The notes beneath the pieces are model-generated. The model was given only the letters and a program-made list of their open reading frames with translations, made no database searches and had not been told where the DNA came from. DNA of 7,616 nt, from the IMG/VR virus record IMGVR_UViG_2568526100_000007. The stretch is one strand, 5' to 3'. Below are positions 314 to 5,797 of this stretch, in pieces (within the stretch, counting starts at the first letter, position 1; each line of letters starts with the position of its first letter). The position numbers were made by a program, and so were the translations under genes. The DNA comes from a virus. Lineage: Duplodnaviria; Heunggongvirae; Uroviricota; Caudoviricetes.

Positions 314-1309
314 GTGACCGTGAGAGCACTGCTGACCCCTGAAATTGCCCCGCGTATGGGGATTGTATTGTTCAGGCCCGGTTCAGAGCTGATGCCCCTG
401 TTTATGCAGGGGCGTGTCCTGCTGGAGCCTGAGCCGGAACGTTATTCATCTTTCGCCAGCGGTGCCGTTCCGGCAGCATCACAACCGCTGGCGGATGATC
501 CTGCCGTTCGGGCCGTGTTCCGCCATGAGGCGGTGATCCGTCGTGCTGGTGGCGTGGAATGCCTTGAGAGCTGGTTACTTCGTGAAAAAGGCTGTCAGTG
601 GCCTCATTCCGACTGGCACAGCGAGAACATGACCACAATGCGGCACGCGCCAGGCGCAATCCGTCTGTGCTGGCACTGTGACAATCTTCTCCGTGACCAG
701 TTCACGGAACGGCTGGAAGCAATGGCAACGGATAACTGTGCCCGCTGGGTGTTGTCTGTTGTGCGCCGTGATCTTGGTTTTGATGACAGTCACGTTGTGA
801 CAATGCCGGAACTGTGCTGGTGGCTGATTCGTAATGACCTGGCGGATGCCTTACCGGAAAGTGCAGCCCGTAAGGCACTGAGATTACCGAAGCCTGTTGT
901 GCCGTCTGTCACCCGGGAAAGTGACCTTGTGCCTTCGGTTACTGCCACCAGCATCATCCAGGATAAGGCGAAAAAGGTGCTGGCGCTGAAAGTGGATCCG
1001 GAGTCGCCGGAGTCTTTTATGTTACGCCCAAAACGTCGTCGCTGGGTTAATGAAAAGTACACGCGCTGGGTTAAGACGCAGCCGTGTGCATGTTGTGGTA
1101 AGCCAGCCGACGATCCCCATCACCTGATTGGTCATGGTCAGGGCGGAATGGGGACAAAATCTCACGATATTTTCACGCTACCGCTGTGTCGGGAGCATCA
1201 CAACGAGCTTCATGCGGATCCTCTGGCGTTCGAAGAAAAGCATGGTTCTCAGGTTGATTTAATTTTTCGTTTTCTTGATCACGCCTTTGCAACTGGCGTG
1301 CTTGGGTAA
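314..1309 (+). CDS. DUF968-family prophage protein (YdfU-like) with a C-terminal Cys/His cluster. Start codon uncertain: GTG 314, GTG 320 or ATG 356.
   Basis: 331-aa ORF; C-terminal CACCG...DDPHH...C..HH..H motif (nt about 1084-1210) recalled as typical of DUF968 proteins that sit immediately upstream of rusA in lambdoid prophages; synteny with rusA and Q. Confidence 0.7.
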   Translation: MTVRALLTPEIAPRMGIVLFRPGSELMPLFMQGRVLLEPEPERYSSFASGAVPAASQPLADDPAVRAVFRHEAVIRRAGGVECLESWLLREKGCQWPHSDWHSENMTTMRHAPGAIRLCWHCDNLLRDQFTERLEAMATDNCARWVLSVVRRDLGFDDSHVVTMPELCWWLIRNDLADALPESAARKALRLPKPVVPSVTRESDLVPSVTATSIIQDKAKKVLALKVDPESPESFMLRPKRRRWVNEKYTRWVKTQPCACCGKPADDPHHLIGHGQGGMGTKSHDIFTLPLCREHHNELHADPLAFEEKHGSQVDLIFRFLDHAFATGVLG

Positions 1310-1321
1310 AAGAGGTGACTG

Positions 1322-1681
1322 ATGCTCATAGATTTGGTTTTACCTTACCCGCCGACGGTGAACACTTACTGGCGACGCCGTGGCAGCACATATTTTGTAT
1401 CAAAAGCCGGGGAGCGTTATCGCCGGGCAGTGGCGCTTATTGTTCGCCAGCAGCGGCTGAAATTAAGCCTGTCCGGAAGGCTGGCGATAAAGGTGATTGC
1501 AGAGCCACCGGATAAGCGCCGTCGTGACCTGGACAATATTCTGAAAGCACCACTGGATGCACTGACACATGCGGGGTTGCTTATCGACGACGAGCAGTTT
1601 GATGAAATCAATATTGTGCGCGGACTGCCTGTTCCTGGTGGTCGGTTGGGGATAAAAATCACAGAGCTGGAGTGCGCATGA
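1322..1681 (+). CDS. rusA: Crossover junction endodeoxyribonuclease RusA (Holliday junction resolvase), 119 aa.
   Basis: Protein MLIDLVLPYPPTVNTYWRRRG...DKRRRDLDNILKAPLDALTHAGLLIDDEQ...GGRLGIKITEL matches the recalled RusA pattern (PPS/TxN, RRRDLDN, DALT, GGRL); AAGAGG Shine-Dalgarno 5-6 nt upstream of ATG 1322; conserved position upstream of Q. Confidence 0.88.
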   Translation: MLIDLVLPYPPTVNTYWRRRGSTYFVSKAGERYRRAVALIVRQQRLKLSLSGRLAIKVIAEPPDKRRRDLDNILKAPLDALTHAGLLIDDEQFDEINIVRGLPVPGGRLGIKITELECA

Positions 1682-2367
1682 ATAACCAGTATTTACAGTT
1701 TGTTCGTGAGCAACTCATTATCGCCACCGCCGATTTGAGTGGGGCAACAAAAGGTCAGCTTGAAGCCTGGCAGGAGAATGCCATGTTTGATACAGGGCGT
1801 TACAGACGTAAAAAAATCCGGTACCGCGATAAGGTCACTGGAAAAATGGTAACGCTGGATAATCCACCGATCCCGGGAAAGCAATCGCTGGCGAAAGGTT
1901 CATCAATTGCCCTAGTCAGTCCGGTTGAGTTTTCGACATCATCATGGCGACGCGCCGTTCTGTCTCTTGAAGAGCATCAGAAGGCGTGGGTACTGTGGGT
2001 ATACAGTGAAAATCCGAGTTGGGATTATCAGGTGGTCATTGCGAAATGGGCGTGGGATAAGTTTCAGGTGCATTTTGGCACCAGAAAAATTACAGGGAAA
2101 ACGCTTGAGCGTCTGAAGAAATTAATCTGGCTGGCGGCGCAGGATGTCAGGGGGAGGATTACTGGGTGTGACGTCTACCAGCGACAGGAACTTGCCAGAC
2201 TGTGTGGAGTTAAGTCAGACAACTGGAGCCACAATTATGCGCACTACTGGCGTGATATGTGCGACATTTTTAAGAACCTCGACAACGAATCTTTGATTTA
2301 TACCATGAAAACAAGATCGCAACAAAAAGCGACCTTTTCGCGGCGGGTTATTGCAAAAGTCAATTAA
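1678..2367 (+). CDS. Phage antitermination protein Q-like (late gene regulator), 229 aa from ATG 1678; the track's alternative start is GTG 1672.
   Basis: ATG 1678 overlaps the rusA stop (ATGA at 1678-1681) with GGAG 7 nt upstream; size and position (rusA, then Q, then late region) are typical of lambdoid and Stx phages. The family call rests on synteny and general resemblance, not on a search. Confidence 0.65.
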   Translation: MNNQYLQFVREQLIIATADLSGATKGQLEAWQENAMFDTGRYRRKKIRYRDKVTGKMVTLDNPPIPGKQSLAKGSSIALVSPVEFSTSSWRRAVLSLEEHQKAWVLWVYSENPSWDYQVVIAKWAWDKFQVHFGTRKITGKTLERLKKLIWLAAQDVRGRITGCDVYQRQELARLCGVKSDNWSHNYAHYWRDMCDIFKNLDNESLIYTMKTRSQQKATFSRRVIAKVN

Positions 2368-2379: not shown

Positions 2380-2432
2380 TCGTGTAAATCTGATATTTTG
2401 CTGATTTTGTACACGATGGCAAACTAAACAAA

Positions 2433-2458
2433 GCCTGCTGCTGAGCGGGCTATCTTTT
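2433..2458 (+). terminator. Candidate tR'-like intrinsic terminator: stem GCCTGC / GCGGGC (one G-U pair), 6-nt loop, then TATCTTTTGT.
   Basis: Hairpin followed by a U-rich tract about 70 nt downstream of the Q stop; analogous to the pR'-tR' arrangement of lambda. Confidence 0.3.
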
Positions 2459-2639
2459 GTCGTAAGTTGAGCGAAAGACCATCGATTTTACCTTGCTAAA
2501 ACTATTCTGCTATTGCCGAGTTACCCTTTAGGTAATACACTCATCTTATAAAAGAAAGTGGTTGTTAGCCACATAGGTTAGGATGTGCGCATACTTTGTT
2601 TGTGTGCTTTTTGTGTTTTATCTGTTAACGGAGGGGAGC

Positions 2640-2867
2640 ATGCCGAAATATCTAACACTTGCCGCTCGCGCGATCCTCTCACCTGAGAAGATCATCAAAA
2701 AAATTGCAGATATAGCTTCCATGTGTGATGGAAAAGAAGCTAAGCATGAAAGTGACAAGTTTTTCATTGATAGTAATGGTTCGATGGTTTTGAATCGCAA
2801 CAACGCTGATGTGCAAAAGGCTTTCGCAGCCAATATTAAGGGATTGAGTACTAAGAAGAAGGGTTAG
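2640..2867 (+). CDS. Small basic hypothetical protein, 75 aa (cassette gene 1). Start chosen at ATG 2640 rather than the track's 2583.
   Basis: GGAGG at 2630-2634, 5 nt before ATG 2640; Lys-rich hydrophilic product (MPKYLTLAARAILSPEKIIKKIADI...STKKKG); low-GC; stop TAG 2865-2867 lies 6 nt before the next gene's ATG. Confidence 0.55.
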   Translation: MPKYLTLAARAILSPEKIIKKIADIASMCDGKEAKHESDKFFIDSNGSMVLNRNNADVQKAFAANIKGLSTKKKG

Positions 2868-2873
2868 TCTTCT

Positions 2874-3671
2874 ATGTGGGCTGCGCTGATTGTTATTGTT
2901 TTAGTTTGTGGTTATCACTATACCAACTGCCATTTGCCGTCACGATACCGTCAAAGCAAAGCGATCGGTTGGAATGCATACTTTGATGTTGCACTGAAAG
3001 GTGGTGAGTTTCTCATAAGTGGTATTCTTATCGCTGCCTTATTGGTTGTTGTTCTGTACGCTGGAATGTCACTTTGGAACATTCCAGCGTACTTGTTTGG
3101 TTGGTACGCTCCCTTTACTTTCGCCCATGACTTTCTCAAAATGCAAGTGTTTGGGTTGAGCATGTTCCCTGCTATGTCGATAGCTTTCACTATTATTGTA
3201 AGTATCGGGAAGGCATCAGAGGCAACCAAAAACCATAAAGACCCACAAAAGCGCAAGGCTATTTTTGAAGAAATTGCGGCTCATAGTGCCGTGGAAAATA
3301 TCCTTCTTGAATCAGTTGAGCGTGGATTGTTATTGTTGGTTACACTGAAGTCTCGCAAGGTCTATGTGGGGATGATTGATGAGGCACGTTTCAATCAGTT
3401 AGATACTAACACATTGGTGCTAATCCCTTTTATGTCCGGGTACAGAGATAAAGATACTCTGACTTTTTGTGTTGAGCATAATTATGTGGACTACTACCTT
3501 AGTCAGGGTATCACATTAACTTCTGAGCCATTGTCAGTTTATCAGTTTAGGCATGTGTTGCCCTTCGATCAGATCGAATCTTTTTCGCTGTTTAATGTTG
3601 AAACATTCGAGACTTTCAAGGCAGGTATTGAAGGGAAGAAGGCCACTGAAGTACAGAATCAAACAAGTTAA
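2874..3671 (+). CDS. Membrane protein of unknown function, 265 aa (cassette gene 2): about four predicted transmembrane helices in residues 1-115, then a roughly 150-aa soluble C-terminal domain.
   Basis: Hydrophobic stretches WAALIVIVLVCGY, FLISGILIAALLVVVLYAGMSLW, AYLFGWYAPFTFA and VFGLSMFPAMSIAFTIIVSIG; long ORF in AT-rich DNA, where chance ORFs are unlikely; tightly linked to gene 1; intrinsic terminator just downstream. Confidence 0.7.
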   Translation: MWAALIVIVLVCGYHYTNCHLPSRYRQSKAIGWNAYFDVALKGGEFLISGILIAALLVVVLYAGMSLWNIPAYLFGWYAPFTFAHDFLKMQVFGLSMFPAMSIAFTIIVSIGKASEATKNHKDPQKRKAIFEEIAAHSAVENILLESVERGLLLLVTLKSRKVYVGMIDEARFNQLDTNTLVLIPFMSGYRDKDTLTFCVEHNYVDYYLSQGITLTSEPLSVYQFRHVLPFDQIESFSLFNVETFETFKAGIEGKKATEVQNQTS

Positions 3672-3690
3672 GGTTGTTACCTCATTAATT

Positions 3691-3716
3691 AAACCCGCCA
3701 TTGAGCGGGTTTTTTG
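3691..3716 (+). terminator. Rho-independent terminator closing the two-gene cassette.
   Basis: Perfect 8-bp stem AAACCCGC / GCGGGTTT (3691-3698 and 3705-3712), 6-nt loop CATTGA, followed by a T-run; 20 nt after the stop at 3669-3671. Confidence 0.75.
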
Positions 3717-4180: not shown

Positions 4181-5230
4181 ATGAAAAATACTGTAAAAAT
4201 AAACAGTGTTGATTTAATCAACGCTGATTGCCTGCATTTTATTCAGTCCCTGCCTGATGATTCCATTGACCTGATTGTTACCGATCCGCCGTATTTCAAA
4301 GTGAAACCCGAGGGCTGGGACAATCAGTGGAAGGGCGACGATGATTACCTGAAGTGGCTGGACCAGTGTCTGGCTCAGTTCTGGCGGGTGCTGAAACCTG
4401 CCGGAAGTCTTTACCTGTTCTGTGGCCATCGCCTGGCATCTGATATCGAAATCATGATGCGTGAGCGGTTTAACGTGCTGAACCATATCATCTGGGCAAA
4501 GCCGTCCGGACGCTGGAACGGGTGTAACAAGGAAAGCCTGCGGGCGTATTTTCCGGCCACAGAGCGCATTCTGTTCGCGGAACATTATCAGGGGCCGTAT
4601 CGCCCGAAAGATGATGGCTGTGAGGCGAAGGGCAGGGCACTGAAACAGCATGTGATGGCCCAGCTGATTGCTTACTTTCGTGATGCGCGCGCGGCCCTGG
4701 GGATAACGGCAAAACAGATTGCAGATGCCACAGGAAAGAAAAACATGGTGTCGCACTGGTTCAGTGCCAGTCAGTGGCAGCTACCGAACGAAAGCGATTA
4801 TCTGAAATTACAGTCGCTGTTTGCCCGGGTGGCAGAAGAGAAACATCAGCGGGGAGAACTGGAAAAGTCCCATTACCAACTGGTCAGCACATACAGTGAG
4901 CTGAACCGGCAGTATGCGGAGCTGCTGAGTGAATATAAACATCTGCGGCGGTATTTTGGCGTGACGGTGCAGGTGCCGTATACCGATGTGTGGACGCATA
5001 AACCGGTGCAGTTCTATCCCGGGAAACATCCGTGCGAAAAACCGGCAGAAATGCTGCAGCAGATAATCAGCGCGAGCAGTCGTCCTGGTGACATGGTGGC
5101 GGATTTCTTCATGGGTTCTGGCTCAACCATAAAGGCGGCTATGGCGCTTGGGCGTCGTGCAATTGGTGTTGAGCTGGAGACCGGACGTTTTGAGCAGACA
5201 GTCAGGGAAGTTCAGGATTTAATCGTTTGA
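4181..5230 (+). CDS. DNA methyltransferase, beta-class N6-adenine/N4-cytosine type (DPPY motif), 349 aa; apparently an orphan phage methylase.
   Basis: Catalytic motif IV IVTDPPYF (nt 4283-4294) near the N-terminus and SAM-binding motif I FFMGSGST near the C-terminus (nt about 5104-5127), the order typical of beta-class amino-MTases; no restriction endonuclease gene in the window. Confidence 0.85.
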   Translation: MKNTVKINSVDLINADCLHFIQSLPDDSIDLIVTDPPYFKVKPEGWDNQWKGDDDYLKWLDQCLAQFWRVLKPAGSLYLFCGHRLASDIEIMMRERFNVLNHIIWAKPSGRWNGCNKESLRAYFPATERILFAEHYQGPYRPKDDGCEAKGRALKQHVMAQLIAYFRDARAALGITAKQIADATGKKNMVSHWFSASQWQLPNESDYLKLQSLFARVAEEKHQRGELEKSHYQLVSTYSELNRQYAELLSEYKHLRRYFGVTVQVPYTDVWTHKPVQFYPGKHPCEKPAEMLQQIISASSRPGDMVADFFMGSGSTIKAAMALGRRAIGVELETGRFEQTVREVQDLIV

Positions 5231-5279: not shown

Positions 5280-5355
5280 GGCCCTTTAGCTCAGTGGTGA
5301 GAGCGAGCGACTCATAATCGCCAGGTCGCTGGTTCAAATCCAGCAAGGGCCACCA
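5280..5355 (+). tRNA. ileZ: tRNA with CAU anticodon, ileX/ileZ-like (tRNA-Ile2 read via lysidine, or formally tRNA-Met), 76 nt.
   Basis: Hand-folded cloverleaf: acceptor GGCCCTT/AAGGGCC, D-stem GCTC/GAGC, anticodon loop CTCATAA, T-stem GCTGG/CCAGC, 3' ACCA; close to the recalled E. coli ileX sequence. Confidence 0.85.
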
Positions 5356-5362
5356 TCACATA

Positions 5363-5439
5363 CCGCCATTAGCTCATCAGGAAAGAGCGCCAGCCTTCGA
5401 AGCTGGCTGCGCGGGGTTCAAGTCCCCGATGGCGGTCCA
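5363..5439 (+). tRNA. argN: tRNA-Arg, anticodon UCG, 77 nt.
   Basis: Hand-folded cloverleaf: acceptor CCGCCAT/ATGGCGG, D-stem GCTC/GAGC, anticodon stem CCAGC/GCTGG with loop CTTCGAA, T-stem CGGGG/CCCCG, 3' CCA encoded. The symbol is assigned by position in the ileZ-argN-argO cluster of Stx phages. Confidence 0.85.
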
Positions 5440-5452
5440 TTATCTGCATCAT

Positions 5453-5529
5453 GCGTTGTTAGCTCAGCCGGACAGAGCAATTGCCTTCTAAGCAATCGGT
5501 CACTGGTTCGAATCCAGTACAACGCGCCA
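5453..5529 (+). tRNA. argO: tRNA-Arg, anticodon UCU, 77 nt.
   Basis: Hand-folded cloverleaf: acceptor GCGTTGT/ACAACGC, D-stem GCTC/GAGC, anticodon stem ATTGC/GCAAT with loop CTTCTAA, T-stem ACTGG/CCAGT, 3' CCA encoded. Confidence 0.85.
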
Positions 5530-5570: not shown

Positions 5571-5767
5571 AAATGTCTCACAATTCAGACGGTTGACTGT
5601 TGTCTGGTTTGCGGGGAGTTTGTTAAAAGAAACTGGCATGGTGAATCCCCCTGTGCGGAGGGGCAATCAGCGAGTAGGTATATGGGATAATCGCGGATTC
5701 AGGTGCTGGTACTGAATTCACCGGGAGGCACCCGGTACCATGCAATGGCACATAGCGCCACTCTCCA

Positions 5768-5791
5768 GCCCCTCTCCGGAGGGGCTTTCTT
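5768..5791 (+). terminator. Terminator-like hairpin in the intergenic slot upstream of nanS-p.
   Basis: Perfect 7-bp stem GCCCCTC / GAGGGGC with loop TCCG, followed by TTTCTT. Confidence 0.4.
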
Positions 5792-5797
5792 GTGGGC

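Follow-up and report, generated by a model that had tools for sequence, protein, structure and literature searches.

A mobile two-gene cassette downstream of the antiterminator Q gene of a lambdoid prophage encodes a conserved 75-residue basic protein and a candidate anti-phage membrane protein

The 7,616-nucleotide (nt) stretch of viral DNA analysed here (the window; IMG/VR record IMGVR_UViG_2568526100_000007, Caudoviricetes) is the late-regulatory region of a lambdoid prophage, and downstream of its antiterminator Q gene it carries a mobile cargo cassette of two genes. The first, gene 1, encodes a genuine conserved basic protein of 75 residues, whose translation start is placed at ATG 2640 by comparative data; the second, gene 2, encodes a 265-residue inner-membrane protein with a predicted Sm-like domain. 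Although the pair falls outside all described families, it recurs in three independent loci for anti-phage genes. We propose that it is an anti-phage module, acting by abortive infection or exclusion, in which the gene 1 protein serves as partner to a membrane effector; we give this reading as a whole a probability of roughly 0.5. On the strength of position and structure, the pair is a fair candidate for a defence system not yet described.

The translation start and coding status of gene 1

The open reading frame (ORF) that contains gene 1 runs from 2583 to 2867 and, if translated in full, would give 94 residues with the N-terminus MCAYFVCVLFVFYLLTEGS. The initial annotation had pointed, correctly in both cases, to this hydrophobic leader and to the GGAGG (2630-2634) that lies 5 nt upstream of ATG 2640, and had judged the real product to be, in all probability, the 75-residue one. 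Comparison with relatives bears this out. In Escherichia coli strain 41, which has a cassette 96% identical to that of the window, a TAG stands directly after ATG 2583, as codon 2, and the 75-residue frame is intact. In two prophages of Citrobacter braakii the leader DNA is well conserved, yet the ATG has become ATC in one (L107) and is put out of frame by an indel in the other (L106). An in-frame upstream ATG is absent from 29 of 33 related loci, and the upstream open frame is there merely 1-24 codons long. The start found throughout the family is an ATG that follows AGGAGG or AGGAG and gives a product of 62-77 residues, the close homologues (n = 13) having 74-75 residues and one of them 79. 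Since the leader frame is broken or lost in relatives, and the ATG linked to the Shine-Dalgarno sequence is conserved, the comparative evidence decides for a start at 2640 and not 2583. By itself this call is an ordinary one, for the PGAP coding sequence in RefSeq (228 nt, WP_001127354.1) has the same start and coincides with 2640-2867 of the window.

Could a 94-residue membrane-anchored or secreted precursor be made from ATG 2583 all the same? The frame is open, the leader is hydrophobic, and a weak AGG lies 5 nt ahead of this ATG. A homologue from an Aeromonas metagenome-assembled genome (P0102; locus L054, 5746-5991) is likewise hydrophobic at its N-terminus as annotated (MWIIALVLLLVAVLAV); some members of the family may be membrane-anchored, or the start of this one may be miscalled. 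A signal-peptide or lipoprotein precursor was the case that the initial annotation had held up against its own proposal. The leader is not conserved, however, and, when read by eye, MCAYFVCVLFVFYLLTEGS has neither a charged n-region nor a lipobox (L-[AS]-[GA]-C), so that it is not a signal peptide. Together with the codon-2 stop of strain 41, the Citrobacter changes, the 29 loci lacking the ATG and the 74-79 residues of the close homologues, this means that the precursor is effectively excluded; the region 2583-2639 belongs to a T-rich 5' leader and is open by chance.

A regulatory RNA within this leader was considered and set aside. A terminator-like hairpin at 2587-2607 was flagged by the terminator scan, but it is not conserved in Klebsiella aerogenes; the fold of the leader is nothing special (z-score -0.69), and it has no Rfam match.

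The ratio of nonsynonymous to synonymous substitution rates (dN/dS) for gene 1 is 0.06, both against the 96%-identical copy and against a copy of 73% identity. Values this low point to strong purifying selection, as expected of a real gene and not of a chance ORF.

Pairing and coupling of the two genes

Gene 1 ends 6 nt before gene 2 begins, and a Shine-Dalgarno-like AGAAGGG for gene 2 sits within the end of gene 1. The two proteins have evolved at similar rates, with dN of 0.16 and 0.15 against the K. aerogenes copy. When 80 loci were gathered with the 265-residue protein alone, from contigs representing one genome per species, an iterative profile search recognised, in 49 of them, a gene 1 homologue immediately ahead of the large gene. 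These paired loci come from Enterobacterales, Vibrio, Aeromonas, Shewanella, Psychrobacter, Pseudomonas, Nitrincola and Advenella, and also from Snodgrassella and the Chromobacteriaceae (Paludibacterium, Pseudogulbenkiania). Across the family the intergenic gap ranges from a 4-nt overlap to about 12 nt, overlapping genes being joined by TAATG or ATGA, which is the geometry expected where translation of two genes is coupled.

These observations agree with what the initial annotation had gone on to say of gene 1: that its product is soluble and basic (12 Lys and 2 Arg against 8 Asp or Glu, isoelectric point 9.67, grand average of hydropathy -0.36), that its stop codon precedes the membrane-protein gene by 6 nt, and that the two are expressed in a coupled manner, for which the spacer geometry across the family now speaks. 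Its suggestion that the protein may be a regulator, antitoxin or sensor partner in a two-component phage system fits the genomic contexts described below. The products of gene 1 and gene 2 may interact physically.

In the window the two ORFs lie in the same frame (TAG TCT TCT ATG, 2865-2876), and fusion of the proteins by readthrough of the stop codon was considered and rejected. This frame relation is lost in the homologues, whose genes overlap or are 2-12 nt apart, and the same-frame arrangement is probably coincidental.

Predicted structures of the two proteins

The model of the predicted cytoplasmic gene 1 protein comprises an amphipathic helix at residues 1-30, modelled with low confidence, a variable linker (30-39), and a conserved core formed by a β-hairpin (41-51) and a helix (56-73); the tail reads KKKG. 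In a library of 1.84 billion proteins the family comprises about 100 clusters at 50% identity, and nearly all members are stand-alone proteins of 59-106 residues. Two apparent extensions of the family were rejected. Matches to proteins of 700-3500 residues, which might have indicated fusion of the gene 1 domain into larger proteins, are spurious, being many short stretches in cadherin-like or WG β-hairpin repeats. A 60-residue ORF in Bryobacterales (Acidobacteria) occupies the same position and has a similar hairpin-helix; the hhalign probability is 1.8%, and its homology is unproven.

For gene 2 the AlphaFold model is confident (predicted local distance difference test score, pLDDT, 88.1; predicted template-modelling score, pTM, 0.70). 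Hydrophobic helices at about residues 2-19, 45-66 and 95-113 are joined by a helical linker to a five-stranded barrel (153-240), and the chain closes with a C-terminal helix. An N-terminal helix with a strongly bent, five-stranded antiparallel sheet is the defining arrangement of the Sm/LSm/Hfq fold, and the predicted model has it. Among 41 homologues Lys and Arg abound in the loop 20-44 and in the segment that follows the third helix, and the loop 67-94 is neutral; by the positive-inside rule this charge pattern would put the N-terminus outside and the C-terminus inside, and it is for this reason that we place the Sm-like barrel in the cytoplasm. Of the invariant motifs, GWxxYF lies where the second helix meets the cytoplasm, and LKSRKVYxG and PxxSGYRDKD belong to the barrel; the Sm-like domain is the most conserved part of the protein.

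Homologues of gene 2 in a clustered protein database number 82, and the protein matches phrog_3630, a family with no assigned function. It has no sequence match in Pfam, NCBIfam, PADLOC or the PDB: the Pfam LSM and Hfq models hit neither the window protein nor any of the 41 homologues even at E ≤ 10, and a profile search of the PDB was blank. Gene 2 thus differs from the Hfq, LSm and WYL barrels both in lacking a sequence-profile match and in having its barrel fused to a membrane anchor. An architectural parallel is the mechanosensitive channel MscS, in which three transmembrane helices are likewise followed by a cytoplasmic β-domain classed as Sm-like. MscS is a heptameric ring, and illustrates that a pore through the membrane can be built on a ring of Sm-like domains. 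Gene 2, however, does not show the combination of an MS_channel domain (PF00924) and an overall structural match that would mark it as a member of that family.

The cassette, its promoter and its insertion site

The two-ORF stretch downstream of Q is low in GC (about 40-43%, compared with about 50-60% in the flanks), and it is flanked by two terminator hairpins (Table 1). The empty site is seen in strain K_EC180 and in phage PhiR5_1, where Q is followed by one terminator hairpin and then by the winged-helix gene. When the empty K_EC180 site is aligned to the window, its single hairpin is found twice, at 2432-2451 and at 3691-3712, around the insert. Because the hairpin is doubled in the window and single at the empty site, the insert can be delimited to about 2461-3687, some 1.23 kb comprising two genes and their own promoter. 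The distribution of the sequence gives the same boundaries: in prophages with a related Q the shared sequence ends at 2427-2460, and the sequence from 3688 on is common to about 2000 E. coli genomes, whereas among 5426 complete E. coli genomes the full-length cassette is present in only 14. The doubling of the hairpin suggests that recombination at or beside it serves to exchange cargo. The layout is that of a classic moron.

A putative sigma-70-type promoter precedes gene 1. It has 8 of 12 consensus matches, under the threshold of 9 used by the scan tool, and was read by eye; hexamers and spacing alike recur in the copies from K. aerogenes, Serratia, Pantoea and Citrobacter, whose flanks have diverged. 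Readthrough past tR' by Q-modified polymerase is well known for the Shiga toxin (stx) genes of lambdoid late operons. By analogy, Q-modified polymerase would read through the cassette during lytic growth, while in the lysogen the cassette's own promoter would drive transcription.

Within the promoter spacer lies a palindrome, TTACC-N5-GGTAA (2521-2535), which has 7-bp arms in K. aerogenes, is present in Citrobacter, and is absent from the Serratia and Pantoea copies. Its loss from copies that retain the promoter hexamers leaves it unsupported as a conserved operator. This bears on the proposal that gene 1 encodes a DNA-binding autoregulator of the cassette and not a physical partner of gene 2. 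The protein is basic and Lys-rich, and three lineages do have the palindrome in their promoter spacer; the protein shows no recognisable DNA-binding fold, and we regard this role as very unlikely.

Genomic contexts of the pair and its relatives

What else occupies the slot downstream of Q? In phage phiP27 and related Stx2 phages it holds the defence gene PD-Lambda-1. The phiP27 gene, annotated 'hypothetical protein L22' (L010, 2205-3434), lies between Q and the winged-helix gene and is recognised as PD-Lambda-1 by PADLOC with an E-value of 2e-89; phiP27 is a Stx2e phage, so that a known defence gene here stands just upstream of stx. In strain APEC 102026 (L103, 4830-5690) the slot holds a DUF5677 protein with no PADLOC match.

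The relatives of the pair are found in varied settings. In Citrobacter the same pair lies downstream of an antiterminator of another family (PF03589). Diverged copies (about 30% identity) have gpA on one side and the portal gene on the other in the P2-like phages SEN4 and SEN5 and in Klebsiella phage ST15-OXA48phi14.1, where a bSEFIR gene follows the pair with one 69-residue ORF between. It is this gpA-portal interval that Rousset et al. (PMC9122126) define as the old/tin hotspot for anti-phage genes in P2. Pectobacterium and K. aerogenes have the pair in integrase-AlpA-primase islands, 3' of the primase gene and beside an Imm_superinfect gene; the region downstream of pri is the immune accessory region of phage-inducible chromosomal islands (PICIs; PMC11364771). 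In the K. aerogenes islands (L008 and L009) this T4 Imm-like gene (PF14373) is located at about 9524-9918, some 500 nt downstream of the pair. Other copies are inserted within the tail-gene clusters of prophages, and yet others are solitary two-gene islets among chromosomal housekeeping genes, as in Psychrobacter. The cassette thus spans Gamma- and Betaproteobacteria, lambdoid and P2-like phages, satellite-like islands and chromosomal islets.

Three of these settings, the P2 gpA-portal interval, the PICI-like region and the lambdoid slot downstream of Q, are recognised defence hotspots in which the pair is resident. For the hotspots of P4, a recent survey reported phage protection by six of eight loci of unknown genes picked at random (PMC13586616), which is a useful prior for the present pair.

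The same contexts argue against the idea that the pair is needed by the phage itself, for lysis timing or another late function. Its position between Q and the lysis genes, downstream of tR', does imply transcription with the late operon. In closely related prophages, however, the slot is empty or filled with unrelated genes, and the pair is also found in satellites without lysis genes, at the P2-like gpA-portal locus and in chromosomal islets. We consider a late function highly improbable.

A stronger alternative is superinfection exclusion at DNA entry, as by HK97 gp15, P22 SieA or T4 Imm: gene 2 would block genome injection, the cell would survive, and gene 1 would provide an assembly or stability factor. 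The gene 2 protein is indeed predicted to reside in the inner membrane, the tail-gene clusters are a classic position for such morons, and one copy adjoins the T4 Imm-like gene. Yet conservation peaks in the cytoplasmic Sm-like domain and not on the periplasmic face, and Pfam shows no similarity to SieA, SieB or Imm. Exclusion in this strict sense is therefore unlikely, in our judgement, although clearly less so than a late function.

Relation to known systems

Searches for known systems found no place for the pair. At E ≤ 1, PADLOC-DB v2.0.0 has no model for the 94-residue translation, which includes the 75-residue protein, or for the 265-residue protein, and the homologues in P2-like phages have no match at E ≤ 0.01; the same search detected its positive controls, the neighbouring bSEFIR and the PD-Lambda-1 of phiP27. 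Neither protein hits any Pfam family at E ≤ 0.1. The literature, searched by accession, PHROG number and keywords, yielded nothing on either protein. Two published groups of systems were considered and rejected. In the AC1 system of Rousset et al., a TIR protein is combined with a transmembrane protein; the TIR gene of the Klebsiella phage is a stand-alone bSEFIR and the pair has no PADLOC hit, AC1 being set apart here on PADLOC results and not on AC1 sequences. The descriptions of the Tai system and of the newly named P4 systems do not match the pair.

Several systems nevertheless resemble it in organisation. RexA and RexB of phage Lambda likewise come from two prophage cargo genes that the lysogen expresses, one for a soluble cytoplasmic partner and the other for a polytopic protein of the inner membrane that is believed to act there. 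RexA is a soluble protein of about 279 residues and RexB has about 144 residues with four transmembrane helices. The sizes are thus reversed compared with our pair, whose soluble partner has 75 residues and whose membrane protein carries an Sm-like domain on the cytoplasmic side, and there is no sequence relation (no Pfam hit at E ≤ 0.1). A likeness in architecture is offered by the Cap15-type effectors of cyclic-oligonucleotide-based anti-phage signalling systems (CBASS; Duncan-Lowey et al. 2021, cited in PMC9122126), which combine N-terminal transmembrane helices with a small C-terminal cytoplasmic β-barrel; the proposed logic leads from binding of a ligand or partner to oligomerisation and then to membrane damage. 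With PD-Lambda-1, which in phiP27 fills the slot between Q and the 65-residue winged-helix gene, and with old/tin of P2, whose gpA-portal hotspot is also home to the relatives in SEN4, SEN5 and the Klebsiella phage, the relation is positional and there is no homology.

Type II toxin-antitoxin systems call for a fuller comparison, since one alternative to a defence role is that gene 2 encodes a toxin and gene 1 its antitoxin, the pair doing nothing beyond stabilising the elements that carry it. The small upstream gene tightly coupled in one operon to a larger downstream gene (a 6-nt spacer here), the compact mobile unit with its own promoter, the spacer palindrome of the E. coli, Citrobacter and K. 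aerogenes copies and the solitary chromosomal islets are all features that such an addiction module would have. No sign was found, however, of a DNA-binding antitoxin with a conserved operator for repression of its own promoter: the gene 1 protein is basic, not acidic, and without a recognisable DNA-binding fold, and the palindrome is lost in Serratia and Pantoea while the promoter hexamers stay. The putative toxin, moreover, would here be a membrane protein with an Sm-like domain, and repeated placement in defence hotspots is more specific than addiction needs. A plain addiction module is on this evidence about as unlikely as exclusion at DNA entry, bearing in mind that toxin-antitoxin and abortive-infection roles are not mutually exclusive.

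Proposed function

On the evidence of position and predicted structure, the pair probably has a role in anti-phage defence or in competition between elements. The effector would be the gene 2 membrane protein. Sm-like domains typically assemble as hexameric or heptameric rings, and a ring of gene 2 protomers would bundle 18-21 transmembrane helices; such an assembly could compromise the membrane or block a step that takes place in it. The gene 1 protein would be an obligate cytoplasmic partner, contacting the cytoplasmic face of gene 2 through its hairpin-helix core, and either holding the effector inactive until infection, as an antitoxin-like brake, or coupling it to a trigger. A more specific version is a membrane-embedded Sm/Hfq-like ring that would sense nucleic acid or another infection cue on the cytoplasmic side of the inner membrane, be gated by the 75-residue protein and, once activated, convert its ring of three-helix transmembrane bundles into a lethal or excluding pore. 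This we offer as a tentative suggestion, more doubtful than the general one.

Several points weigh against a defence module of this kind. Both proteins are without a model match in PADLOC, Pfam and NCBIfam, and the argument for defence is for this reason an argument from location. The gene 1 protein is basic, whereas type II antitoxins are usually acidic; its predicted structure is moderately confident (pLDDT 67.5), and the model has no fold match. The isolated islets among housekeeping genes, finally, fit a toxin-antitoxin system or another role equally well.

If the pair is protective, it would represent a new type of effector, together with a very small and tractable partner protein, for prophage-borne immunity, and the slot downstream of Q, next to the site of the Shiga toxin genes, would be a hotspot for defence cargo in E. 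coli prophages. We found no description of a membrane anchor combined with an Sm/Hfq-like barrel for any defence or exclusion system, and a gene 2 pore, if real, would be the first immune effector to have an Sm-like domain anchored in the membrane.

Neighbouring genes

The features of the window are collected in Table 1. The annotation of E. coli strain S4 shows the genes in the same arrangement, with lysis and head genes further downstream.

Table 1. Features of the window, with the basis for each assignment
Feature	Position	Strand	Basis and remarks
DUF968 protein gene	314-1309		
RusA gene	1322-1681		
Late antiterminator Q gene	1672-2367	+	Pfam PF06323 Phage_antiter_Q, E 1.5e-83; RefSeq annotation; defines the slot of the cassette
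Left terminator hairpin (tR'-like)	2432-2460	+	Stem 2432-2439/2444-2451, then AUCUUUUGU; terminator scan; fold -14.2 kcal/mol, z -3.1
Putative sigma-70-type promoter	2513-2541	+	TTGCCG (2513-2518), 17-nt spacer, TACACT (2536-2541); read by eye
Probable 5' leader, about 90 nt, T-rich	2548-2639	+	Contains the non-conserved ATG 2583 and Shine-Dalgarno GGAGG 2630-2634
Gene 1, 75-residue basic, Lys-rich, predicted cytoplasmic protein	2640-2867	+	PGAP coding sequence and homologues
Spacer TCTTCT, 6 nt	2868-2873	+	Gene 1 TAG 2865-2867; gene 2 ATG 2874
Gene 2, 265-residue inner-membrane protein	2874-3671	+	
Right terminator hairpin	3691-3716	+	AAACCCGC-N6-GCGGGUUU and U-run; fold -12 kcal/mol, z -3.35; end of cassette
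TrmB-like winged-helix (wHTH) gene, 65 residues	3834-4031		phrog_331, E 6e-37
N6/N4 DNA methyltransferase gene	4181-5230		
Three tRNA genes	5280-5529		ARAGORN anticodons CAT, TCG, TCT; the first is tRNA-Ile in RefSeq
Small RNA STnc100	5607-5797		Rfam match 134 bits against a gathering score of 47; between tRNA cluster and nanS-p-like gene
nanS-p-type esterase gene	after the tRNA genes		Incomplete at the end of the window

The 145 nt upstream of the 65-residue winged-helix gene are common to about 2000 E. coli genomes and to Stx2 phages, and in strain K_EC180 the gene itself carries a frameshift. The first tRNA, with anticodon CAT, is presumably of the lysidine-modified ileZ type, as in the ileZ-argN-argO cluster of Stx phages. 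In the methyltransferase a segment of about 130 residues is inserted in the N6_N4_Mtase domain, the Pfam match covering residues 29-340 against a model of 221 positions, and a weak HTH_3 match is located at residues 167-195.
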